From Escherichia coli (GTDB lineage Bacteria; Pseudomonadota; Gammaproteobacteria; Enterobacterales; Enterobacteriaceae), in assembly GCF_013122565.1 (NCBI RefSeq), contig NZ_CP053258.1: a stretch of 64,000 bases of DNA; one strand, given 5' to 3'. Shown here one piece after another: positions 40,868 through 53,058 of this stretch. Made by a program: the position numbers and the translations under genes. Under the pieces are notes generated by a model. That model ran no database searches. It was not told where the DNA came from and was given only the letters and a program-made list of their open reading frames with translations. How positions within the stretch are numbered: position 1 is the stretch's first letter; each line of letters begins with the position of its first letter.

Positions 40868-42289
40868 ATGATGAGCAAAATAAACCAAACGGATATCGAT
40901 CGGTTGATTGAACTGGTCGGCGGGCGCGGCAATATTGCGACGGTGAGCCACTGTATTACTCGCCTGCGCTTTGTCCTCAACCAACCGGCCAATGCCAGAC
41001 CGAAAGAAATTGAGCAACTCCCCATGGTGAAAGGCTGTTTCACCAATGCCGGGCAATTTCAGGTGGTGATTGGCACCAACGTGGGTGATTACTATCAAGC
41101 ACTGATAGCGTCAACCGGACAGGCGCAGGTTGATAAAGAGCAGGTAAAAAAAGCCGCCCGGCAGAATATGAAATGGCATGAGCAGTTGATCTCTCATTTC
41201 GCGGAGATCTTCTTCCCGTTGCTGCCCGCGTTGATCAGCGGCGGTTTGATCCTCGGTTTTCGCAATGTGATCGGCGATTTGCCCATGAGCAACGGTCAAA
41301 CGCTGGCGCAAATGTACCCTTCCCTGCAAACGATCTACGATTTTCTGTGGTTGATCGGTGAAGCGATCTTCTTCTACCTGCCGGTCGGTATTTGCTGGTC
41401 AGCGGTGAAAAAAATGGGCGGCACGCCGATCCTTGGTATCGTGCTTGGCGTGACACTGGTTTCTCCCCAGCTGATGAACGCTTATCTGCTCGGGCAGCAG
41501 CTGCCGGAAGTGTGGGACTTTGGCATGTTCAGCATCGCCAAAGTGGGCTATCAGGCACAGGTGATCCCGGCACTGTTAGCCGGGCTAGCACTGGGCGTTA
41601 TTGAAACTCGCCTTAAACGCATCGTGCCAGATTACCTCTATCTGGTGGTGGTGCCCGTCTGTTCGCTGATCCTCGCGGTGTTCCTCGCCCATGCGCTGAT
41701 TGGTCCATTTGGTCGCATGATTGGTGATGGCGTTGCCTTTGCGGTACGTCACCTGATGACCGGTAGCTTTGCTCCGATTGGTGCGGCATTGTTTGGCTTC
41801 CTGTACGCGCCGCTGGTGATCACCGGCGTACACCAGACCACCCTTGCTATTGATTTGCAGATGATTCAAAGCATGGGTGGCACGCCAGTGTGGCCGCTGA
41901 TTGCGCTGTCGAATATCGCTCAGGGCTCCGCCGTGATAGGCATTATCATTTCCAGCCGCAAGCACAATGAACGCGAGATCTCCGTGCCTGCCGCTATCTC
42001 CGCCTGGCTTGGGGTCACTGAGCCTGCAATGTACGGCATCAACCTGAAATATCGCTTCCCGATGCTGTGCGCGATGATTGGTTCTGGTCTGGCAGGATTG
42101 CTATGCGGCCTGAACGGCGTTATGGCGAATGGTATCGGCGTAGGGGGCCTGCCGGGAATTCTCTCGATTCAACCGAGCTACTGGCAGGTATTTGCGCTGG
42201 CAATGGCTATCGCCATCATCATCCCGATTGTACTCACCTCGTTTATCTACCAGCGGAAATACCGCCTGGGCACGCTGGACATTGTTTAA
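40868..42289 (+). CDS. treB: PTS trehalose-specific EIIBC component
   Basis: 473 aa; EIIB cysteine motif in N-terminus, polytopic EIIC. Confidence 0.95.
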   Translation: MMSKINQTDIDRLIELVGGRGNIATVSHCITRLRFVLNQPANARPKEIEQLPMVKGCFTNAGQFQVVIGTNVGDYYQALIASTGQAQVDKEQVKKAARQNMKWHEQLISHFAEIFFPLLPALISGGLILGFRNVIGDLPMSNGQTLAQMYPSLQTIYDFLWLIGEAIFFYLPVGICWSAVKKMGGTPILGIVLGVTLVSPQLMNAYLLGQQLPEVWDFGMFSIAKVGYQAQVIPALLAGLALGVIETRLKRIVPDYLYLVVVPVCSLILAVFLAHALIGPFGRMIGDGVAFAVRHLMTGSFAPIGAALFGFLYAPLVITGVHQTTLAIDLQMIQSMGGTPVWPLIALSNIAQGSAVIGIIISSRKHNEREISVPAAISAWLGVTEPAMYGINLKYRFPMLCAMIGSGLAGLLCGLNGVMANGIGVGGLPGILSIQPSYWQVFALAMAIAIIIPIVLTSFIYQRKYRLGTLDIV

Positions 42290-42338
42290 TTTTCTTCGGG
42301 GCGCAATTGCGCCCCCTCGCATTTGCAGGAATAACGTA

Positions 42339-43994
42339 ATGACTAATCTTCCCCACTGGTGGCAAAACGGCGTTATCTACCAGATTTATCCAAAGAGTTT
42401 TCAGGACACCACGGGTAGCGGCACCGGCGATTTACGTGGCGTTATCCAACGCCTGGACTATCTGCATAAACTGGGCGTTGATGCCATCTGGCTAACCCCC
42501 TTTTATGTCTCTCCCCAGGTCGATAACGGTTACGACGTAGCGAACTATACGGCGATTGATCCCACCTACGGCACGCTGGACGATTTTGACGAACTGGTGA
42601 CGCAGGCAAAATCGCGCGGAATTCGTATCATTCTCGATATGGTGTTTAACCATACCTCTACCCAACATGCCTGGTTTCGCGAGGCGCTGAACAAAGAAAG
42701 CCCTTACCGCCAGTTTTATATCTGGCGCGATGGCGAACCAGAAACGCCACCGAACAACTGGCGTTCAAAATTTGGCGGTAGTGCGTGGCGCTGGCATGCG
42801 GAAAGCGAACAGTACTATTTGCATCTCTTTGCACCAGAACAGGCGGATCTCAACTGGGAGAATCCAGCGGTACGCGCAGAGCTGAAAAAAGTCTGTGAGT
42901 TCTGGGCCGATCGTGGGGTCGACGGGTTGCGCCTGGATGTGGTGAATCTGATCTCCAAAGACCCGCGTTTCCCTGAAGACCTGGACGGCGACGGGCGTCG
43001 CTTCTACACCGACGGGCCACGAGCACACGAGTTTTTGCACGAGATGAACCGCGATGTGTTTACGCCACGCGGGTTAATGACCGTAGGTGAAATGTCCTCC
43101 ACCAGCCTTGAGCATTGCCAGCGATACGCGGCTCTGACAGGCAGTGAATTGTCGATGACCTTTAATTTTCATCACCTGAAGGTCGATTATCCCGGTGGTG
43201 AAAAATGGACGCTGGCTAAACCTGACTTTGTGGCGTTGAAAACATTGTTCCGCCACTGGCAACAAGGAATGCACAACGTGGCATGGAATGCCTTGTTCTG
43301 GTGTAACCACGATCAGCCGCGCATTGTTTCTCGCTTTGGTGATGAAGGTGAATACCGCGTGCCTGCGGCAAAAATGCTGGCGATGGTGCTGCATGGCATG
43401 CAGGGAACGCCGTATATCTACCAGGGCGAAGAGATTGGCATGACCAACCCGCATTTCACGCGCATTACTGACTATCGCGACGTAGAGAGCCTCAATATGT
43501 TTGCCGAGCTGCGCAACGATGGTCGTGATGCCGACGAGTTATTGGCAATCCTCGCCAGTAAATCCCGTGACAACAGTCGCACGCCCATGCAATGGAGCAA
43601 CGGCGATAATGCCGGGTTTACGGCTGGCGAACCATGGATTAGCATGGGCGATAACTATCAACAAATCAACGTAGAAGCCGCGCTGGCCGATGAGTCCTCG
43701 GTGTTTTACACCTACCAAAAGTTAATCGCACTACGTAAGCAAGAAGCCGTTCTGACATGGGGCAATTACCAGGATCTGCTGCCAAACAGCCCTGTATTGT
43801 GGTGCTATCGCCGTGAATGGAAGGGGCAAACCTTGCTGGTCATTGCCAACCTTAGCCGTGAGATCCAACCCTGGCAGCCAGAGCAAATGCGCGGCAACTG
43901 GCAGCTTGTGATGCATAACTACGAAGAAGCCTCACCACAACCCTGTGCCATGACTTTACGGCCTTTTGAGGCTGTCTGGTGGTTACAGAAGTAA
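42339..43994 (+). CDS. treC: Trehalose-6-phosphate hydrolase
   Basis: Translation MTNLPHWWQNGVIYQIYPKSF... (GH13); 551 aa from ATG 42339; track ORF start 42192 overlaps treB and is rejected. Confidence 0.95.
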   Translation: MTNLPHWWQNGVIYQIYPKSFQDTTGSGTGDLRGVIQRLDYLHKLGVDAIWLTPFYVSPQVDNGYDVANYTAIDPTYGTLDDFDELVTQAKSRGIRIILDMVFNHTSTQHAWFREALNKESPYRQFYIWRDGEPETPPNNWRSKFGGSAWRWHAESEQYYLHLFAPEQADLNWENPAVRAELKKVCEFWADRGVDGLRLDVVNLISKDPRFPEDLDGDGRRFYTDGPRAHEFLHEMNRDVFTPRGLMTVGEMSSTSLEHCQRYAALTGSELSMTFNFHHLKVDYPGGEKWTLAKPDFVALKTLFRHWQQGMHNVAWNALFWCNHDQPRIVSRFGDEGEYRVPAAKMLAMVLHGMQGTPYIYQGEEIGMTNPHFTRITDYRDVESLNMFAELRNDGRDADELLAILASKSRDNSRTPMQWSNGDNAGFTAGEPWISMGDNYQQINVEAALADESSVFYTYQKLIALRKQEAVLTWGNYQDLLPNSPVLWCYRREWKGQTLLVIANLSREIQPWQPEQMRGNWQLVMHNYEEASPQPCAMTLRPFEAVWWLQK

Positions 43995-44006
43995 ATCTTC
44001 ACTAAG

Positions 44007-44038
44007 CCCCGGTAATGCCTGTCATTCCGGGGTTTTGT
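44007..44038 (+). terminator. Rho-independent terminator after treC
   Basis: ccccgg...ccgggg hairpin followed by ttttgt. Confidence 0.7.
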
Positions 44039-44387
44039 CTGTCAGCATGTTGTTTTTGTTGATTTTTCAACCAGCAAATTCATTAAAAAATTTACATATC
44101 GCTGTAGCGCCCGTCATCCGTACGCTCTGCTTTTTACTTTGAGCTACATCAAAAAAAGTTCAAACATCCTTGATGCAAAGCACTATATATAGACTTTAAA
44201 ATGCGTCCCAACCCAATATGTTGTATTAATCGACTATAATTGCTACTACAGCTCCCCACGAAAAAGGTGCGGCGTTGTGGATAAGCGGATGGCGATTGCG
44301 GAAAGCACCGGAAAACGAAACGAAAAAACCGGAAAACGCCTTTCACAATTTCTGTGGATAACCTGTTCTTAAAAATATGGAGCGATC

Positions 44388-46526
44388 ATGACACCGCATG
44401 TGATGAAACGAGACGGCTGCAAAGTGCCGTTTAAATCAGAGCGCATCAAAGAAGCAATTCTGCGTGCAGCTAAAGCAGCGGAAGTCGATGATGCCGATTA
44501 TTGCGCCACTGTTGCCGCGGTTGTCAGCGAGCAGATGCATGGCCGCAACCAGGTGGATATCAACGAGATCCAGACCGCAGTTGAAAACCAGCTGATGTCG
44601 GGTCCATACAAACAACTGGCTCGTGCTTACATCGAGTACCGTCACGATCGCGACATTGAACGTGAAAAACGCGGTCGCCTGAACCAGGAGATCCGTGGTC
44701 TGGTCGAGCAGACCAACGCCTCGTTACTCAACGAAAACGCCAACAAAGACAGCAAGGTGATTCCAACCCAGCGCGACCTGCTGGCCGGGATCGTGGCTAA
44801 ACACTATGCACGTCAGCACCTGCTGCCGCGTGACGTGGTGCAGGCACATGAGCGTGGCGATATTCACTATCACGATCTCGATTACTCGCCGTTCTTCCCG
44901 ATGTTCAACTGCATGTTGATCGACCTGAAAGGCATGCTGACCCAGGGCTTTAAAATGGGGAACGCCGAGATTGAACCGCCGAAGTCGATCTCTACGGCAA
45001 CCGCGGTAACTGCGCAGATTATTGCTCAGGTTGCCAGCCATATTTATGGCGGCACCACCATTAACCGTATCGATGAAGTGCTGGCACCGTTTGTCACCGC
45101 CAGCTACAACAAACATCGCAAGACCGCAGAAGAGTGGAACATCCCGGACGCCGAAGGCTACGCTAACTCTCGTACCATTAAAGAGTGCTACGATGCCTTC
45201 CAGTCGCTGGAGTACGAAGTAAACACTCTGCACACCGCCAACGGTCAGACGCCGTTTGTAACCTTTGGTTTTGGTCTGGGCACCAGCTGGGAGTCGCGCC
45301 TGATTCAGGAATCTATCCTGCGTAACCGTATCGCAGGCCTCGGTAAAAACCGTAAAACTGCGGTGTTTCCGAAACTGGTGTTTGCGATTCGCGATGGCCT
45401 GAACCATAAAAAAGGCGATCCGAACTACGACATCAAACAGCTGGCGCTGGAGTGCGCAAGCAAGCGCATGTATCCGGATATCCTGAACTACGATCAGGTA
45501 GTGAAAGTCACCGGTTCGTTTAAAACTCCGATGGGCTGCCGCAGCTTCCTCGGCGTGTGGGAAAATGAAAACGGCGAGCAGATCCACGATGGTCGTAACA
45601 ACCTCGGCGTGATCAGCCTGAACCTGCCGCGTATTGCTCTGGAAGCAAAAGGCGATGAAGCCACCTTCTGGAAGCTGCTGGATGAACGTCTGGTGCTGGC
45701 ACGTAAGGCGCTGATGACCCGTATCGCTCGTCTCGAAGGCGTGAAAGCGCGCGTGGCCCCGATCCTCTATATGGAAGGTGCTTGTGGCGTGCGTCTGAAT
45801 GCTGACGATGATGTTTCTGAAATCTTCAAAAACGGTCGTGCGTCTATTTCGCTGGGTTACATCGGCATCCACGAAACCATTAACGCGCTGTTCGGCGGCG
45901 AGCATGTTTACGACAACGAGCAGCTTCGCGCGAAAGGTATCGCCATTGTTGAACGTCTGCGTCAGGCAGTGGATCAGTGGAAAGAAGAAACGGGTTATGG
46001 TTTCAGTCTCTACAGCACGCCGAGTGAAAACCTGTGCGACCGCTTCTGCCGTCTCGATACTGCTGAGTTTGGCGTGGTGCCGGGCGTGACCGATAAAGGT
46101 TACTACACCAACAGTTTCCACCTCGATGTGGAGAAGAAGGTGAACCCGTACGACAAGATCGACTTTGAAGCGCCTTACCCGCCGCTGGCGAACGGTGGTT
46201 TCATTTGCTACGGCGAGTATCCAAACATTCAGCACAACCTGAAGGCGCTGGAAGATGTCTGGGATTACAGCTATCAGCATGTACCGTATTACGGCACCAA
46301 TACGCCGATCGATGAGTGCTACGAGTGTGGCTTTACCGGTGAGTTCGAGTGCACCAGCAAAGGCTTCACTTGCCCGAAATGTGGTAACCATGACGCCTCC
46401 CGTGTGTCGGTAACTCGCCGCGTGTGCGGATATTTAGGTAGCCCGGATGCACGTCCGTTTAACGCTGGTAAGCAGGAAGAAGTTAAGCGCCGCGTTAAAC
46501 ATTTGGGGAATGGGCAGATAGGTTAA
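44388..46526 (+). CDS. nrdD: Anaerobic ribonucleoside-triphosphate reductase
   Basis: 712 aa; C-terminal glycyl-radical region and zinc-ribbon CxxC...CxxC. Confidence 0.97.
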   Translation: MTPHVMKRDGCKVPFKSERIKEAILRAAKAAEVDDADYCATVAAVVSEQMHGRNQVDINEIQTAVENQLMSGPYKQLARAYIEYRHDRDIEREKRGRLNQEIRGLVEQTNASLLNENANKDSKVIPTQRDLLAGIVAKHYARQHLLPRDVVQAHERGDIHYHDLDYSPFFPMFNCMLIDLKGMLTQGFKMGNAEIEPPKSISTATAVTAQIIAQVASHIYGGTTINRIDEVLAPFVTASYNKHRKTAEEWNIPDAEGYANSRTIKECYDAFQSLEYEVNTLHTANGQTPFVTFGFGLGTSWESRLIQESILRNRIAGLGKNRKTAVFPKLVFAIRDGLNHKKGDPNYDIKQLALECASKRMYPDILNYDQVVKVTGSFKTPMGCRSFLGVWENENGEQIHDGRNNLGVISLNLPRIALEAKGDEATFWKLLDERLVLARKALMTRIARLEGVKARVAPILYMEGACGVRLNADDDVSEIFKNGRASISLGYIGIHETINALFGGEHVYDNEQLRAKGIAIVERLRQAVDQWKEETGYGFSLYSTPSENLCDRFCRLDTAEFGVVPGVTDKGYYTNSFHLDVEKKVNPYDKIDFEAPYPPLANGGFICYGEYPNIQHNLKALEDVWDYSYQHVPYYGTNTPIDECYECGFTGEFECTSKGFTCPKCGNHDASRVSVTRRVCGYLGSPDARPFNAGKQEEVKRRVKHLGNGQIG

Positions 46527-46548
46527 TCTTCACTCTGCGCTAAGCAAA

Positions 46549-46675
<127 letters not shown>

Positions 46676-46683
46676 GCGAAATA

Positions 46684-47148
46684 ATGAATTATCATCAGTA
46701 CTATCCTGTCGACATCGTCAACGGCCCCGGCACTCGCTGCACCCTGTTTGTCTCCGGGTGTGTTCATGAATGCCCCGGTTGCTATAACAAAAGCACATGG
46801 CGGGTAAATTCTGGTCAGCCATTTACCAAAGCAATGGAAGACCAGATCATTAACGATCTGAATGACACTCGTATCAAACGCCAGGGTATTTCCCTCTCCG
46901 GCGGCGATCCGCTGCATCCGCAAAACGTGCCGGATATTCTGAAACTGGTACAACGCATCCGCGCCGAGTGTCCGGGTAAAGACATCTGGGTGTGGACAGG
47001 CTATAAACTCGACGAACTCAACGCTGCGCAAATGCAGGTTGTTGATTTGATTAACGTGCTGGTCGACGGCAAATTTGTGCAGGATTTAAAAGACCCTTCC
47101 CTGATCTGGCGCGGCAGCAGCAATCAGGTGGTGCATCATTTGCGTTAA
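46684..47148 (+). CDS. nrdG: Anaerobic ribonucleotide reductase activating protein (radical SAM)
   Basis: 154 aa; cysteine cluster CTLFVSGCVHECPGC. Confidence 0.95.
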   Translation: MNYHQYYPVDIVNGPGTRCTLFVSGCVHECPGCYNKSTWRVNSGQPFTKAMEDQIINDLNDTRIKRQGISLSGGDPLHPQNVPDILKLVQRIRAECPGKDIWVWTGYKLDELNAAQMQVVDLINVLVDGKFVQDLKDPSLIWRGSSNQVVHHLR

Positions 47149-47439
47149 TCACTCATCCAGTCGTTTAGTCGCGTCTTCATAAACGGCTGAGTTCTCTCTC
47201 TTACCAATAGATATCACCAACACGAGCAACTCTTTATCGTTAACCTGATAAACCAGGCGATATCCCAGTGTGCGCAGCTTAATTTTGTAGCAGTCCGGTA
47301 AATCCCGCAGTTTAGCCGATGGATTGCGCGGCCTTTTTAGCAAATCCTCAAGCTTTTTTTTAAATTGTTCCCGGACTGTCACGCCCAGTTTTTGCCACTC
47401 TTTCAGCGCCCGCGGATCAAAAGCCAGCTCATAGTTCAT
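47149..47439 (-). CDS. RelE-family mRNA interferase toxin (RelE paralogue)
   Basis: Translation from MNYELAFDPRALKEWQKLG...DCYKIKLR..GYRLVYQV closely resembles E. coli RelE as I recall it; track ORF extends further upstream (to 47517), internal ATG chosen. Confidence 0.8.
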   Translation of the reverse strand: MNYELAFDPRALKEWQKLGVTVREQFKKKLEDLLKRPRNPSAKLRDLPDCYKIKLRTLGYRLVYQVNDKELLVLVISIGKRENSAVYEDATKRLDE

Positions 47440-47671
47440 CCAGTCGGACCTTAATGGCCTCTTGTGGGTTGGCCAGTCGTTCCCTGACAGTGCGTAACAA
47501 GGCTTCTTCACTATCACTGACAGTGAGCGTTTTTACCGGCATTCGTCCATTTTCCGCAACGTACTGAAACAGCAGCCGCACTGCTTCAGTAGGCGTGATA
47601 TTTAATTTTTCCAGCACCGCATAAGCCTCATTTTTCAGTTTGTCATCCAGGCGGACGTTAAGTGTGGCCAT
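47429..47671 (-). CDS. RelB/DinJ-family antitoxin
   Basis: 80-aa translation MATLNVRLDDKLKNEAYAVLEKLNITPTEA... resembles RelB; overlaps toxin start by 11 nt. Confidence 0.8.
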   Translation of the reverse strand: MATLNVRLDDKLKNEAYAVLEKLNITPTEAVRLLFQYVAENGRMPVKTLTVSDSEEALLRTVRERLANPQEAIKVRLDEL

Positions 47672-47689
47672 TATGCCTCCGGTAATTAT

Positions 47690-47735
47690 GAAAAGTGTAA
47701 TGCATTATAGCATTACATATGCATTACATTCATTT
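47690..47735 (-). promoter_or_regulatory. Putative RelB-type operator repeats in the TA promoter
   Basis: Repeated TGTAATGCATTA / GCATTACAT motifs immediately upstream of the antitoxin gene. Confidence 0.45.
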
Positions 47736-47861
47736 CTGGAAAACGCCTCGCAAAAATGGCGTCGACACGCAGAAATATGCCGTAGTGAAGAGAGATTTGG
47801 CGGTGATTTTACGAGGGGTAAGAAAGCGTTGGGCGGTAACGTTTCACCGCCCAATAAGGAA

Positions 47862-48251
<390 letters not shown>

Positions 48252-48430
48252 TCACTTCCTTTTTTATTTACACTTCATCCTTCACACTGCCTCATCGACG
48301 GCTACGCTCATTCGACCGGGTCACGTACTACGAGTACGCTCCCCGGCTCTCATTCACTTTCCGTCTCGATGCAGCGCGAATGATTTTGTGTAATTTTTTA
48401 GTTTATGGCGCGGCAGGTCGCGCCAGTTTT

Positions 48431-49783
48431 TTACTGCCCGGCGATTTTCATCTCCGGCAACAGCACAGAACCACACTGTATATTACTGCGTGTTTCAATA
48501 TCGTTACCGACGGTGACAATATTGCGCCACATATCTTTTAAATTACCTGCGATGGTGATTTCGCTCACCGGATACTGAATTTCGCCATTCTCTACCCAGA
48601 AGCCCGCTGCACCACGGGAATAATCACCGGTAATGGCACTCACGCCCTGACCCATCAGCTCCGTCACCACCAGCCCGGTGCCCATCTCTTTAAGCATTTG
48701 TTCGAAGCTTAGCCCTTGTCCGGCAATCCGCCAGTTGTGAATACCGCCCGCATGTCCGGTGCTTTTCAGCCCCAGTTTCCGCGCCGAGTAGCTGGTCAGC
48801 AACCACTGCGTCAGGATGCCATCTTTAATAATATCGCGACGCTCGGTGCGCACACCTTCGCTGTCGAAAGGCGTCGACGCCAGCCCTTTCAGCAGATGCG
48901 GATGCTCTTCAATGGTCAGCCAGTCCGGCAGAATTTGTTTACCCAGCGAATCCAGCAGGAAGGTGGATTTACGGTAAACCGATCCACCCGCTATCGCCCC
49001 AACCAGATGCCCAAAGAGCCCGGTTGCCACTTCATTGACAAAAATGACCGGCGCTTTCATGGTGGAGAGTTTACGCGGTGACAGGCGCGATAAAGTGCGG
49101 CGAGCACAGTCGGCCCCGACCCACTCTGGCGTTTGCAGATCGCTCATTGCACGACCAATGGTGTAGGCGTAATCACGCTCCATATCGCCATTTTCTTCAG
49201 CAATTACACAGCTGGAGAGCGAATGACGCGTAGAGCAGTAACCCTGCAACATGCCGTGGCTGTTGCCAAAAACTTTGACACCGTAGTGGCTGTTAAAGCT
49301 GCCGCCTTCGGTATTAGTAATACGTTTGTCCGCCTGCAATGCCGCCTGTTCTGCGCGGGCCGCCAGTTCAATGGCTTCATCCGGGGAAACTTCCGCGGGG
49401 TGGAACAAGTCGAGATCTGGTGCGTCAAAGGCCAGCAGCTCTTTGTCTGCCACGCCGGCACAGGGATCTGGCGAGGTATAACGGGCAATATCCAGCGCCG
49501 CCTGTACAGTACGGGCAATGGCCTGCGGGCTTAAATCGGTGGATGATGCGCTACCTTTGCGGTTCTGGTGATAAACAGTGATCCCCAGCGCGCCATCGCT
49601 ATTGAATTCAACATTCTCCACTTCACCATAACGCGTGCTTACGCTAATGCCGGTGGTCTTGCTGACGGCAACTTCCGCACCGTCCGATTTGCCTGAGGCC
49701 AACTCCAGCGCAGTGGAAACTGCTTCTTCCAGAATCTTGCGCTGCGCTTCAACTTGAGAGATTACTTTCATTGCAAGTGCCAT
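48431..49783 (-). CDS. pmbA: Metalloprotease PmbA (TldE)
   Basis: 450-aa translation [29 protein letters not shown]... Confidence 0.95.
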
Positions 49784-49876
49784 AATGTAGAGAGTTTCTC
49801 TGAAGTCTAACAGAGAACCGTTTTTCAGTGCGCATCTTAACTGGTAACATTAGCCTCTTTTTTTAAGGAGCCTGAG

Positions 49877-50428
49877 ATGACTAAGCAGCCCGAAGACTGG
49901 CTCGACGACGTTCCCGGTGATGACATCGAAGACGAAGACGATGAAATTATCTGGGTCAGTAAAAGTGAAATTAAACGCGATGCCGAGGAGCTAAAACGCC
50001 TTGGCGCGGAAATTGTTGATCTGGGGAAAAACGCGCTGGATAAGATCCCGTTAGATGCGGATCTGCGCGCGGCTATTGAGCTCGCCCAGCGTATTAAGAT
50101 GGAAGGTCGCCGCCGCCAGTTGCAGCTCATCGGTAAGATGCTGCGCCAGCGCGATGTTGAACCGATCCGTCAGGCGCTGGATAAGCTGAAAAACCGTCAC
50201 AACCAGCAGGTGGTACTGTTCCATAAACTGGAAAACCTGCGCGATCGTCTGATCGATCAAGGTGATGACGCCATCGCTGAAGTATTGAATCTGTGGCCCG
50301 ATGCCGATCGTCAGCAACTGCGTACTCTGATCCGCAACGCGAAGAAAGAGAAAGAAGGGAATAAGCCGCCGAAATCCGCACGCCAGATTTTCCAGTATCT
50401 GCGCGAGTTAGCGGAGAACGAAGGGTAA
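49877..50428 (+). CDS. yjgA: Ribosome-associated protein YjgA (DUF615)
   Basis: 183-aa translation [40 protein letters not shown]... Confidence 0.9.
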
Positions 50429-50453
50429 TTTTCGTTGTTGATGTGAGTATGGT

Positions 50454-50500
50454 TTGCCGGATGCGGCGTAAACGCCTTATCCGGCAATGCTTTATCAGGC
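50454..50500. repeat. REP element
   Basis: gccggatgcggcgtaaacgccttatccggc palindromic motif. Confidence 0.7.
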
Positions 50501-50510
50501 TGAAGCCGAA

Positions 50511-51884
50511 TTACTGCGCAGCTTCCGCCTTCTTCGCCAGACCATCCAGCAGTTTCTGATGGATCCCACCAAAACCGCCGTTGCTCATCACCAGAATATG
50601 GTCGCCAGGCTGAGCGGTTTTCACCACCATATCTGCCAGCGTATCCACATCGCCACTCCAGTGTGCAGGCTGAACGCAGGCTTCTGCCACTTCTGCCACC
50701 TGCCACGGAATATGCGCCGGTTGCAGCAGGAAGACTTCATCGGCACGACCTAATGAAGGTGCCAAATCGTCTTTGCAGATCCCCATTTTCATGGTATTCG
50801 AGCGCGGTTCCAGCACAGCAATAATGCGCGCCGTACCACCAACTTTGCCACGCAGCGCCGCAAGCGTTGCCAGAATCGCCGTCGGGTGATGGGCAAAATC
50901 GTCATATACCGTGACGCCATTGGCTTCACCACGCAGTTCCAGACGGCGACGAGCGTTAATAAACGAACCCAGCGCGTTAGCGGCATCTGCCGGCGCTACA
51001 CCAACATGGCGAGCCGCCGCAATCGCCATCAGGCCATTGTGCATATTATGTTCGCCTACCAGCGACCATTTCACTTCGCCCACTTTTTCGCCATCCAGCA
51101 AGACTTCCCATTCAGAAGCGTCAGTGGTCAGCTTTTTCGCCTGCCAGTGACCTTGCTCGCCCACCAGCTCCTGCTCGCTCCAGCAGCCCATCGCCATGGT
51201 CTGTTTCAGGTTGATGTCGTTTTCCGGCCAGATAATACGGCCCTGCCCCGGAACGATACGCACCAGATGGTGGAACTGTTTCTGGATCGCTTTCAGGTCG
51301 TCAAAGATATCGGCGTGATCGAACTCAAGGTTGTTGAGGATCAGCGTACGCGGGCAGTAATGAACAAATTTAGAACGTTTGTCGAAGAAGGCGCAGTCAT
51401 ACTCATCCGCTTCGATAACAAAGAAGTCGCTTTCGCCCAGACGCGCCGAAACCTCAAAGTTCCCCGGCACACCGCCGATCACAAATCCCGGTTTGTAACC
51501 GCACTGTTCCAGAATCCAGGTCGCCATTCCCGCCGTGGTGGTTTTGCCGTGTGTACCAGCAACGGCCAGCACCCAGCGGTCGCGCAGCACAAAATCGTGC
51601 AGCCACTGTGGACCTGACATATAAGGGATGTTTTTTTCCAGTACCGCTTCCACACACGGATTTCCACGGGTCATGGCGTTGCCAATAATCACCAGATCCG
51701 GCTGCGGCTCGAGCTGGCTGGCATCGTAACCCTGAATCAGCTCAATGCCTTGCTTCTCAAGTAAGGTGCTCATCGGCGGATACACATTGGCGTCCGAACC
51801 CGTTACTTCATGGCCTAACTGGCGCGCCAGCATCGCCAGACCGCCCATAAACGTGCCACAAATTCCTAAAATATGAATGCGCAT
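50511..51884 (-). CDS. mpl: UDP-N-acetylmuramate:L-alanyl-gamma-D-glutamyl-meso-DAP ligase
   Basis: 457 aa; Mur ligase N-terminus MRIHILGICGTFMGGLA. Confidence 0.95.
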   Translation of the reverse strand: MRIHILGICGTFMGGLAMLARQLGHEVTGSDANVYPPMSTLLEKQGIELIQGYDASQLEPQPDLVIIGNAMTRGNPCVEAVLEKNIPYMSGPQWLHDFVLRDRWVLAVAGTHGKTTTAGMATWILEQCGYKPGFVIGGVPGNFEVSARLGESDFFVIEADEYDCAFFDKRSKFVHYCPRTLILNNLEFDHADIFDDLKAIQKQFHHLVRIVPGQGRIIWPENDINLKQTMAMGCWSEQELVGEQGHWQAKKLTTDASEWEVLLDGEKVGEVKWSLVGEHNMHNGLMAIAAARHVGVAPADAANALGSFINARRRLELRGEANGVTVYDDFAHHPTAILATLAALRGKVGGTARIIAVLEPRSNTMKMGICKDDLAPSLGRADEVFLLQPAHIPWQVAEVAEACVQPAHWSGDVDTLADMVVKTAQPGDHILVMSNGGFGGIHQKLLDGLAKKAEAAQ

Positions 51885-52059
51885 ACGTCACTATCCTTTT
51901 TTAATCTGCCGCTCATTTTACGCATATGTCGGGCAAGTGAGAAACGCATTTCAGGATAATCCGTAATTTGCTGGCGCGATTCACCTGAGCGCAACATTCC
52001 GATTATTTGTTAAGATTGTTACGGTCGCTTTACTCCATAAACATTGCAGGGAAAGTTTT

Positions 52060-53058
52060 ATGAAAACGTTAGGTGAATTTATTGTCGAAAAGCAGCACGA
52101 GTTTTCTCATGCTACCGGTGAGCTCACTGCTTTGCTGTCGGCAATAAAACTGGGCGCCAAGATTATCCATCGCGATATCAACAAAGCAGGACTGGTTGAT
52201 ATCCTGGGTGCCAGCGGTGCTGAGAACGTGCAGGGCGAGGTTCAGCAGAAACTCGACTTGTTCGCTAATGAAAAACTGAAAGCCGCACTGAAAGCACGCG
52301 ATATCGTTGCGGGCATTGCCTCTGAAGAAGAAGATGAGATTGTCGTCTTTGAAGGCTGTGAACACGCAAAATACGTGGTGCTGATGGACCCCCTGGATGG
52401 CTCGTCCAACATCGATGTTAACGTCTCTGTCGGTACCATTTTCTCCATCTACCGCCGCGTTACGCCTGTCGGCACGCCGGTAACGGAAGAAGATTTCCTC
52501 CAGCCTGGTAACAAACAGGTTGCGGCAGGTTACGTGGTATACGGCTCCTCTACCATGCTGGTTTACACCACCGGATGCGGTGTTCACGCCTTTACTTACG
52601 ATCCTTCGCTCGGCGTTTTCTGCCTGTGCCAGGAACGGATGCGCTTCCCGGAGAAAGGCAAAACCTACTCCATCAACGAAGGAAACTACATTAAGTTTCC
52701 GAACGGGGTGAAGAAGTACATTAAATTCTGCCAGGAAGAAGATAAATCCACCAACCGCCCGTATACCTCACGTTATATCGGTTCACTGGTCGCGGATTTC
52801 CACCGTAACCTGCTGAAAGGCGGTATTTATCTCTACCCAAGCACCGCCAGCCACCCGGACGGTAAACTGCGTTTACTGTATGAGTGCAACCCGATGGCAT
52901 TCCTGGCGGAACAAGCGGGCGGTAAAGCGAGCGATGGCAAAGAGCGTATTCTGGATATCATCCCGGAAACCCTGCACCAGCGCCGTTCATTCTTTGTCGG
53001 CAACGACCATATGGTTGAAGATGTCGAACGCTTTATCCGTGAGTTCCCGGACGCGTAA
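52060..53058 (+). CDS. fbp: Fructose-1,6-bisphosphatase class 1
   Basis: 332-aa translation [32 protein letters not shown]... Confidence 0.95.

Follow-up and report, generated by a model that had tools for sequence, protein, structure and literature searches.

Positions 47149-47755 of the window, the 64,000-nucleotide stretch of Escherichia coli DNA analyzed here, most probably (probability roughly 0.78) hold an intact RelBE-family operon, a chromosomal type II toxin-antitoxin module that is an old neighbor of nrdG, inherited vertically and not recently inserted. The pair is a standard RelBE module, and RefSeq annotation of it already exists at the family level. The original prediction had described an overlapping RelBE-like pair between nrdG and cybC, which profile and solved-structure matches bear out, and had read it as a strain-specific insertion, a view that comparison with other genera does not support. 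A literature search on the E. coli nrdG-cybC toxin-antitoxin locus found no paper that mentions it, and the locus is not named in a 2023 survey of E. coli toxin-antitoxin systems.

A RelBE-type pair between nrdG and cybC

The relB-like antitoxin gene was located at 47429-47671 on the minus strand, where its ORF and its profile and structure matches predict a protein of 80 aa with an N-terminal RelB domain of the ribbon-helix-helix type. The protein matched RelB in Pfam (6e-16) and the RelB/DinJ equivalog PRK11235 in NCBIfam (2.5e-38, 130 bits against a cut-off of 96), and the NCBIfam RelB_ParD model scored 30 bits, below its cut-off of 60. Its closest solved structure was RelB 4fxe (E=1.2e-20), aligned end to end. 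The sequence GGAGG at 47676-47680 (minus strand), conserved across genera and ending 4 nt before the ATG, reads as the relB Shine-Dalgarno element. The antitoxin ORF lies upstream of the toxin ORF and overlaps it by 11 nt, suggesting translational coupling, and both ORFs are full length in the window.

The relE-like toxin gene, recognized by homology to solved RelE and by its catalytic residues, occupies 47149-47439 on the minus strand and encodes 96 aa (MNYELAFD...KRLDE). The program-made ORF list gives it as 47149-47517, beginning at an upstream GTG; homology to M1 of RelE and PGAP calls in other strains indicate that the true start is the ATG at 47439, which yields the 96-aa protein. The exact protein was matched in the protein collection as WP_171459922.1, recorded from a single E. 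coli contig. E. coli RelE 4v7k was the nearest solved structure (E=4.5e-35, end to end, 64% identity), in agreement with the predicted closeness to E. coli RelE, as 64% is also the identity to K-12 RelE. Four of the 5 significant solved-structure matches were E. coli RelE, the remaining 1 being a weak, unnamed toxin-like protein; none of YafQ, YoeB, and HigB was found at E<=0.001 among the solved structures, against ~1e-35 for RelE. K52, K54, R61, R81, and Y87 (E. coli RelE numbering) are all identical in the toxin in a gap-free alignment, and R61 is a residue that we take to be functional in RelE. The roles of K52/K54, R81, and Y87 in RelE are described in PMC5027501. Residue 83 is N in the E. 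coli locus, R in K-12 RelE, and K or R in other genera.

Family membership, alignment, and catalytic residues together indicate a RelE-type toxin. The best Pfam families, PF05016 ParE_toxin (the ParE_toxin/RelE superfamily, 1.4e-14) and PF15781 ParE-like_toxin, would by their names suggest a ParE-type gyrase poison in place of a RelE-type mRNase, but PF05016 spans the whole RelE/ParE superfamily, the NCBIfam assignment is RelE_StbE (above the model cut-off), and the partner antitoxin belongs to the RelB family and not to ParD. Taken with the full-length structural matches to RelE and the conserved RelE catalytic residues, these points make a gyrase poison extremely improbable.

The toxin gene is convergent (tail to tail) with nrdG, the anaerobic ribonucleotide reductase activase gene at 46684-47148 on the plus strand, whose ORF product is 99-100% identical to annotated NrdG. 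As predicted, the 2 stops abut: the nrdG TAA lies at 47146-47148 and the toxin stop (TCA on the plus strand) at 47149-47151, a gap of 0 nt. Upstream of the operon, an Escherichia-specific spacer (47756-47828) shows the greatest variation among E. coli alleles (86-93% identity) and has no homology detected in Salmonella; it is followed by a hairpin, TTGGGCGGTGAAACGTTACCGCCCAA (47829-47854, minus strand), that is likely the cybC terminator and is unlike the hairpin of the empty allele. Between 47756 and 47861, no homology to the sequence downstream of Salmonella cybC was detected. The cytochrome b562 gene cybC itself (47862-48248, minus strand) encodes 128 aa, the length annotated in other E. 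coli, and so is full length, as had been noted from the sequence. No second RelE-like gene was found in the 64-kb window. An Rfam scan of 46400-48500 returned nothing in the toxin-antitoxin interval; it did give sub-threshold matches to a REP element (naRNA4) between nrdD and nrdG.

Promoter, putative operator, and predicted mode of action

The promoter/leader region (47672-47755, minus strand, ~83 bp) is homologous across genera, and it is here that the homology to Salmonella, Citrobacter, and Enterobacter starts. In blastn comparisons it was 91-95% identical over 60-67 nt to Salmonella and Citrobacter; for Enterobacter and Kosakonia, the identity was 79-82% over 84 nt. No match was obtained upstream of the leader. 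An extended -10 element, TGCTATAAT, was read from the sequence at 47704-47712 (minus strand), with a TGCTAxAxT core conserved across genera. No good -35 was seen at the relB promoter, and a sigma-70 consensus scan that required a -35 gave nothing; the promoter is thus called by eye as an extended -10 promoter, a call backed by conservation.

Three copies of the 8-mer TGTAATGC bracket TGCTATAAT upstream of relB, at 47696-47703 (plus strand), 47710-47717 (minus strand), and 47721-47728 (minus strand). On the coding strand this putative operator (47696-47728, minus strand), recognized by repeat clustering, cross-genus conservation, and a theme resembling relO, reads TGTAATGC-ATA-TGTAATGC-TATAAT-GCATTACA, with 2 half-sites in direct orientation at an 11-bp spacing and the third in inverted orientation on the other side of the -10 hexamer. 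Seven matches to TGTAATGC occur in the 64-kb window, where 2.8 are expected, and 3 of the 7 fall inside 33 bp, so the clustering exceeds chance. Across 13 loci representing 5 genera, the operator block hardly changes, while the bases next to it vary. Repeated operator motifs had been proposed from the sequence alone; the repeats are real, but the repeated unit is the 8-mer TGTAATGC and not the motif that was named.

By homology with E. coli RelBE, the extended -10 promoter would drive relB and then relE, with the 2 genes coupled through their 11-nt overlap. The antitoxin is predicted to dimerize via its N-terminal ribbon-helix-helix, to bind the 3 TGTAATGC half-sites around the -10, and to repress its own operon, and its C-terminal tail would wrap and neutralize the toxin. 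The toxin is expected to be a ribosome-dependent endonuclease that cuts mRNA in the ribosomal A site, so that free toxin would halt translation when the labile antitoxin has been broken down or its synthesis has stopped.

Distribution, origin, and decay of the pair

Among 5426 complete E. coli genomes, the full pair was identified in 390 (7.2%) and remnants in 64, with nothing in the rest (~92%), and all 456 E. coli matches (456/456) were chromosomal. None of the complete E. coli genomes compared exceeded 99.2% identity to the left flank in the window or 98.5% to the right flank. Comparison of the nrdG-cybC interval across E. coli therefore makes the pair accessory, not core, within the species. 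K-12 MG1655 has an empty site, with only a 44-bp nrdG-cybC spacer, which agrees with the predicted absence of the pair from K-12, and its cybC is a pseudogene. A clean excision does not connect the empty and occupied alleles: ~39 nt are peculiar to the empty allele, and both its hairpin and its nrdG stop codon differ from those of the occupied allele. The polarity of the change within E. coli consequently rests on outgroup comparison, with no deletion scar visible.

Outside E. coli, relB-relE lies tail to tail with nrdG in Citrobacter, Enterobacter, Kosakonia, Salmonella, and Klebsiella (at least 5 genera besides Escherichia), and the nrdG-abutting pair was also found in E. albertii and in loci carrying E. 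marmotae- and E. fergusonii-named proteins. Compared with antitoxins linked to nrdG in other genera, the antitoxin of the window shows 80-91% identity. For the same genus pairs, dS is 1.1-1.9 for relB and 0.9-1.3 for nrdG, and the between-genus dN/dS of relB is 0.03-0.08; the relE ratios are 0.04-0.14 between genera and 0.13 among E. coli alleles. These ratios indicate that both genes are under purifying selection, with non-synonymous change 2-4 times faster in the toxin than in the antitoxin. Divergence from other genera is much greater in the toxin gene than in its flanking genes, and dS of the toxin gene is saturated, so some chance of an allele replacement in the toxin gene is left.

A mobile RelBE cassette that had recently entered between 2 core genes would account for the absence of the pair from K-12 and ~92% of complete E. 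coli, and for occupied and empty alleles that differ by block replacement and not by a scar. We nevertheless regard such a strain-specific insertion as very unlikely, given that the same module abuts nrdG across the genera listed above, that relB and nrdG have similar dS, that the operator is conserved, and that the E. coli alleles of the pair differ by 2-4%, as core genes do. Neither an integrase nor a transposase nor an insertion sequence (IS) element was found among the ORFs of the nrdG-cybC interval, and no target-site duplication was seen at the junctions between occupied and empty sequence. Likewise, plasmids and phages yielded no close copy apart from 2 chromosome-like records of 4.9-5.4 Mb labeled plasmids and 1 Salmonella record at ~72% identity; the sole "phage" match to the pair was a 501-kb Salmonella record. 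Because of the nrdG synteny across genera, the agreement of relB and nrdG dS, the conserved operator, the lack of close mobile copies, and the decay intermediates described below, the pair was probably present ancestrally, then retained in a minority of E. coli and lost from most of them, which would make the insertion reading backwards. The locus thus cautions that "absent from K-12" need not mean "inserted."

The sugar-utilization operon that separates the pair from cybC in other genera appears to have been deleted in Escherichia. A remnant of the gene for a PRD regulator upstream of relB, which would have proved this deletion, was considered and rejected: the Salmonella homology begins only ~7 nt before the stop codon of the PRD-regulator gene (window ~47755), and there is therefore no usable remnant.

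Alleles at successive stages of decay were identified in Escherichia. An 11-bp direct repeat, TCATCCAGTCG, is present at 47153-47163, where it encodes the toxin C-terminus RLDE, and at 47436-47446, where it encodes the antitoxin C-terminal RLDE. Recombination between the 2 copies would delete 283 bp and, with them, the toxin gene, so that an antitoxin of 79 aa abuts nrdG; this product matches the orphan-antitoxin allele of E. coli N32 (L086) exactly. An A8 run in toxin codons 27-29 (47354-47361, minus strand; T8 on the plus strand), present in Escherichia only, is the site of -1 frameshifts in E. albertii and E. marmotae-type toxin alleles. In E. coli E69, a -2 frameshift in the (GA)n run of toxin codons 80-83 (47193-47201, minus strand) eliminates Y87. 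In E. albertii and E. coli SCPM-O-B-9504, the toxin is frameshifted and most of relB is deleted. An orphan antitoxin with an intact promoter is carried by ~60 E. coli genomes, a figure estimated from the coverage and identity classes of the E. coli matches, and by E. marmotae-type loci. Strain IAI39 is one carrier of the orphan allele. Judging from these alleles, toxin loss has occurred repeatedly in Escherichia, and the module itself is being lost there. One locus thus presents every stage of decay, from the intact pair through toxins frameshifted at homopolymer or dinucleotide runs, toxins excised between 11-bp repeats, and antitoxins lost after toxin inactivation to the empty site, an order that agrees with the prediction of addiction logic; its value as an evolutionary example is modest.

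The same lesions could be taken to mean that the pair in the window, intact as it is, is decaying in function, with an attenuated or inert toxin and a locus kept by drift or for a useful antitoxin. The many independent toxin lesions in Escherichia, the loss of the pair from most E. coli, the faster non-synonymous evolution of the toxin, N83 in place of R/K83, and the retention of orphan antitoxins with intact promoters all lean that way. So does the presumed Salmonella counterpart of the toxin, STM4450, which reportedly attenuates growth only slightly in E. coli, although this is the sole report of toxicity that we found and the paper has been retracted. Against functional decay, both ORFs are full length and all 5 RelE catalytic residues are kept, the relE dN/dS values point to purifying selection within E. 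coli and between genera, and a pattern in which the toxin is lost first and the antitoxin kept is what an active toxin would be expected to leave. On balance, we consider functional decay unlikely.

We also entertain, as a speculative and unlikely proposition, that nrdG-linked RelBE is more than a generic addiction module, with expression coupled to anaerobic dNTP supply, a toxin-independent role for RelB, or both. In at least 6 genera, relE converges on nrdG with 0-9 nt between the stops, too little for a terminator, and the gap falls in this range in all loci compared except one. Hairpin plus T-run candidates for ending the convergent relE and nrdG transcripts are weak and unconvincing and lie in antisense to these genes, ~200 nt into relE and ~360 nt into nrdG. 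Given this terminator-less abutment, FNR-driven anaerobic transcripts of nrdDG could continue across relE and relB in antisense, or those of relBE could extend into nrdG; if so, read-through in either direction would tie expression of the toxin-antitoxin pair to the anaerobic supply of dNTPs. Conservation is consistently stronger in the antitoxin than in the toxin, and this, together with the survival of the antitoxin as an orphan, suggests a toxin-independent role for RelB, for example, as a regulator or as a shield against RelE toxins arriving from outside. Both the stronger conservation of the antitoxin and the conserved abutment with nrdG could reveal regulation beyond the textbook model.

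Comparison with known systems

The pair adds one more RelBE paralogue to the accessory toxin-antitoxin repertoire of E. coli, which by itself matters little. DinJ-YafQ and other E. coli modules of the RelE superfamily resemble it in that its antitoxin matches RelB/DinJ models and its toxin falls in the RelE/ParE superfamily. YafQ, YoeB, and HigB are without the Lys/Arg catalytic residues used by RelE (PMC5027501), unlike the toxin described here, which has the RelE catalytic set; all 5 residues checked for the original prediction were present.

K-12 RelBE (relB b1564/relE b1563, in the Qin cryptic prophage) is alike in gene order and sizes, with a RelB of 79 aa versus 80 aa here and a RelE of 95 aa versus 96 aa here. 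The toxins are 64% identical and the antitoxins 48% identical (full length) at the amino acid level, with DNA identity of 62%. A recent duplication of the chromosomal K-12 relBE, put forward as a possibility to be checked, is ruled out at these identities. The K-12 operator relO also consists of TGTAAT/ATTACA repeats overlapping the promoter, but the architecture differs, being TTGTAATGACATTTGTAATTACAA in K-12 and 2 direct 8-mers 11 bp apart plus 1 inverted across TATAAT here. The genes overlap by 1 nt in K-12 relBE versus 11 nt here, and the K-12 genes lie in prophage Qin, whereas the present pair lies in the 3' flank of nrdG.

The Salmonella enterica pair holds the same position on the chromosome, where its relB-relE genes converge on nrdG-nrdD and abut them. 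This nrdG-adjacent pair presumably corresponds to STM4449-STM4450, catalogued as relBE, an equation based on locus-tag numbering and synteny; the LT2 numbering is consistent with it, as STM4452 is nrdD and STM4449-4450 are listed as a relBE module. The Salmonella antitoxin is 89% and the toxin 71-72% identical to those of the window, and the operator is almost identical. The Salmonella toxin is 94 aa long and its gene stops 9 nt from nrdG, compared with 96 aa and a 0-nt gap here, and in Salmonella a sugar-utilization operon (PRD regulator or DUF remnants), gone in Escherichia, lies between the pair and cybC.

Identity of the pair between nrdG and cybC

We identified a RelB-type antitoxin ORF (47429-47671, minus strand; 80 aa, MATLNVRLDD...VRLDEL) and, 3' of it, a RelE-type toxin ORF (47149-47439, minus strand; 96 aa, MNYELAFD...KRLDE), sharing an 11-nt overlap and located between nrdG (46684-47148, plus strand) and cybC (47862-48248, minus strand). 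The overlapping pair proposed at 47149-47735 was confirmed, with this span taking in toxin, antitoxin, and operator. The mechanical ORF listing starts the toxin at GTG 47517, and the ATG at 47439 was taken from homology and PGAP calls in other strains. The abutment with nrdG was borne out as well: the nrdG stop TAA (47146-47148) directly adjoins TCA (47149-47151), the complement of the toxin stop, leaving a gap of zero between the convergent genes. As predicted, cybC is full length (128 aa), which is also the case for most E. coli; the K-12 MG1655 copy is annotated as a pseudogene. The exact toxin (WP_171459922.1, E. coli) was recorded on a single 4.82-Mb E. coli contig and differs from the common toxin allele by V33L; the exact antitoxin protein was present on at least 1000 contigs.

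The antitoxin hit Pfam RelB at 6e-16 and scored 130 bits with the NCBIfam RelB/DinJ equivalog PRK11235 (cut-off 96); solved RelB (4fxe, E=1.2e-20) aligned with it along its entire length. For the toxin, the models hit were PF05016 of the RelE/ParE superfamily (1.4e-14) and RelE_StbE of NCBIfam. Its resemblance to RelE was upheld, with 64% protein identity to K-12 RelE and E. coli RelE making up 4 of the 5 significant matches among all solved structures (4v7k, E=4.5e-35). The alignment with 4v7k is gap-free over residues 1-94, and the RelE catalytic residues are all present, with K52, K54, R61, R81, and Y87 identical. In RelE, the general base is K52 or K54 and the general acid R81, with Y87 positioning the substrate (PMC5027501). 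The non-toxic forms of RelE deposited in the PDB are R81A (4fxe) and R81A/R83A (2kc8) mutants; the window toxin retains R81 and has N83. A ParE-type gyrase-poison toxin was rejected on the RelE structure matches, the RelE catalytic residues, and the RelB-family partner. Judged by its sequence, the pair is a standard RelBE module. No other RelE-like gene was found in the 64-kb window; a toxin tblastn match at 28875-28958 (28 aa, 43% identity, E=0.027) was judged to be chance.

Retention or insertion at the nrdG site

The original prediction regarded the pair as a strain-specific insertion absent from K-12, and the absence was verified, as the MG1655 interval between nrdG and the cybC pseudogene is a 44-bp spacer with a hairpin. 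With an interval-spanning query, the full pair was identified in 390 of 5426 complete E. coli genomes (7.2%). An insert-only query of the same genomes found any trace in 454 (390 with at least 80% coverage and 64 partial), with all 456 matching places chromosomal. The core flanks of the locus (42000-53000) had best identities of 99.2% (left) and 98.5% (right) against these genomes, which, together with the toxin protein recorded on one contig, points to an E. coli lineage that has been sparsely sampled.

Scanning GTDB species, each represented by one genome, with the toxin and then running tblastn with the window neighbors, we found relB-relE directly downstream of nrdG-nrdD, in convergent orientation, in Citrobacter amalonaticus, 4 Enterobacter genomes, 3 Kosakonia species, and a soil MAG, and as a remnant at nrdG in E. 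albertii. Looking up Salmonella-named toxins gave the order pmbA-cybC-[DUF/PRD sugar operon]-relB-relE-><-nrdG-nrdD in S. enterica, an arrangement also present on a Klebsiella pneumoniae chromosome, and loci with E. marmotae- or E. fergusonii-named antitoxins have the window order pmbA-cybC-relB-relE-nrdG. The stop codons of nrdG and relE lie 0-9 nt apart in every one of six genera (loci L006-L010, L017, L021, L090, L093, and L096), with one Enterobacter toxin ORF entering nrdG by 63 nt. Homology with the other genera starts ~83 bp 5' of the relB ATG (~47755), at the 3' end of their PRD-regulator gene; in Escherichia, the PRD operon is absent and the cybC terminator hairpin lies in a distinct 106-bp spacer.

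Between the window and other genera, relB dS was 1.1-1.9 (dN/dS 0.03-0.06) and that of the adjacent nrdG 0.9-1.3, and the low dS of a recent transfer was seen in no pair compared. Close plasmid or phage copies were not found: the nearest "plasmid" matches are chromosome-like (4.9-5.4 Mb), and the sole "phage" match is a 501-kb Salmonella record. Two of the PLSDB records, CP125156.1 (5.37 Mb, L096) and NZ_CP134663.1 (4.90 Mb, L097), have the size of chromosomes and contain the nrdDG region; their "plasmid" label is likely wrong and swells the plasmid match count. Synteny in several genera, relB dS close to that of nrdG, and the lack of a close mobile copy speak against a strain-specific insertion, and most likely that reading has to be inverted: these comparisons lead us to conclude that the module probably occupied the nrdG site before the genus Escherichia arose and has since been lost from most E. 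coli.

Allele states and unequal decay

Four states were defined from the sampled loci: an empty interval (O157:H7, strain 2013C-3342, K-12); the full pair (O8:H28, SMS-3-5, the window); an orphan 79-aa antitoxin that adjoins nrdG in the absence of a toxin gene (O145 RM11626-C1, N32, IAI39, CE10, and others); and a frameshifted toxin gene whose promoter and most of relB are deleted (E. coli SCPM-O-B-9504, E. albertii). The empty allele (L003/L004/L089) has ~39 nt of its own sequence, including the hairpin TTCCCTGTT...AACAGGGAA, and its nrdG ends in CGA TGA versus CGT TAA in occupied alleles, so plain excision from any of the occupied alleles compared would not produce it. Empty and occupied alleles are alternative blocks and not insertion or excision products of each other.

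The 11-bp direct repeat TCATCCAGTCG encodes the C-terminal RLDE of both the toxin (47153-47163) and the antitoxin (47436-47446). Removing in silico the 283 bp between the copies reproduced the exact nrdG/relB junction of N32 and the observed 79-aa antitoxin, terminated by the toxin's own stop codon. This orphan-antitoxin allele (L085, L086) was seen in E. coli N32, IAI39, CE10, O145, and others. Further toxin lesions arose independently: in E. coli E69, a -2 frameshift in a (GA)n run at toxin codons 80-83 (47193-47201) removes Y87, and E. albertii, E. coli SCPM-O-B-9504, and E. marmotae-type loci carry a -1 frameshift in an A8 run at codons 27-29 (47354-47361). Only Escherichia has the A8 run, with other genera encoding the KKK/RKK/KNK stretch by interrupted codons; both the A8 and the (GA)n run are slippage-prone and may speed toxin inactivation. 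In every case, either the toxin was broken with the antitoxin intact or the antitoxin was missing only where the toxin was already broken, an order that an active toxin would be expected to give.

At nrdG-linked loci (window versus L006-L010, L017, L021, L032, L037, L090, and L093), antitoxins shared 76-95% protein identity and toxins 58-91%, with the antitoxin always higher, the reverse of the pattern expected for toxin-antitoxin pairs. Against other genera, sliding-window DNA identity was 52-72% over toxin codons ~22-92 and 75-92% on either side; between the window and SMS-3-5, the relE 3' half was 87-95% identical and relB and nrdG 98-100%. relE dN was 2-4 times that of relB, yet relE is under purifying selection (dN/dS 0.04-0.14). 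Its dS was often above the flanks and saturated against Escherichia; relB dS tracked nrdG dS. A toxin-independent role of RelB and relE allele exchange are candidate explanations for the slower antitoxin.

Transcription and comparison with known relBE loci

The coding strand 5' of relB reads ...GAA TGTAATGC ATA TGTAATGC TATAAT GCATTACA CTTTTCATAATTACC GGAGG CATA ATG. Two direct copies of the 8-mer TGTAATGC (47710-47717 and 47721-47728, minus strand) are spaced 11 bp, about one helical turn, and a third (47696-47703, plus strand) is inverted across TATAAT; 3 of the 7 matches in 64 kb sit within 33 bp, with 2.8 expected for the whole window. The perfect TATAAT is preceded by TGC, forming an extended -10. 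A good -35 was not found upstream of relB, and the consensus promoter scan was empty for this reason. In an alignment of 13 loci (Escherichia, Salmonella, Citrobacter, Enterobacter, Kosakonia), the operator/promoter block is nearly invariant and neighboring bases vary, which we take as phylogenetic footprinting favoring a functional operator and promoter. The operator motifs of the original prediction stand as repeats, namely three copies conserved in 5 genera, and are presumably bound by RelB.

At the other end of the pair, a gap of 0-9 nt leaves no room for a terminator, making convergent read-through likely, and the hairpin plus T-run candidates ~200 nt into relE antisense, at the T8 run 47354-47361, are only weak. 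Read-through antisense transcription is therefore plausible. The nrdD-nrdG intergenic region (46513-46664) contains 2-3 REP-type palindromes, with Rfam naRNA4 at 34-42 bits (gathering 59.5).

By analogy with RelBE biology, RelB dimers would repress the operon by binding the operator via their RHH domains, and the RelB C-terminus would neutralize RelE; on loss of the labile antitoxin, freed RelE would cleave mRNA in the ribosomal A-site and arrest translation.

Hundreds of E. coli genomes already have a family-level RefSeq annotation of the pair, and we found no paper describing the E. coli locus, its conserved nrdG linkage, or its decay series. The Salmonella positional counterpart is already catalogued as relBE and is STM4449-4450 by locus-tag numbering (STM4452 being nrdD); a retracted paper reported slight growth attenuation in E. 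coli for this presumed counterpart. K-12 relBE, in contrast, sits in the Qin prophage, and a recent duplication of it is contradicted by the identities (64% toxin and 48% antitoxin protein, 62% DNA), which make the window pair an old paralogue. K-12 relO has TGTAAT/ATTACA hexads as in the window operator, but in another arrangement.
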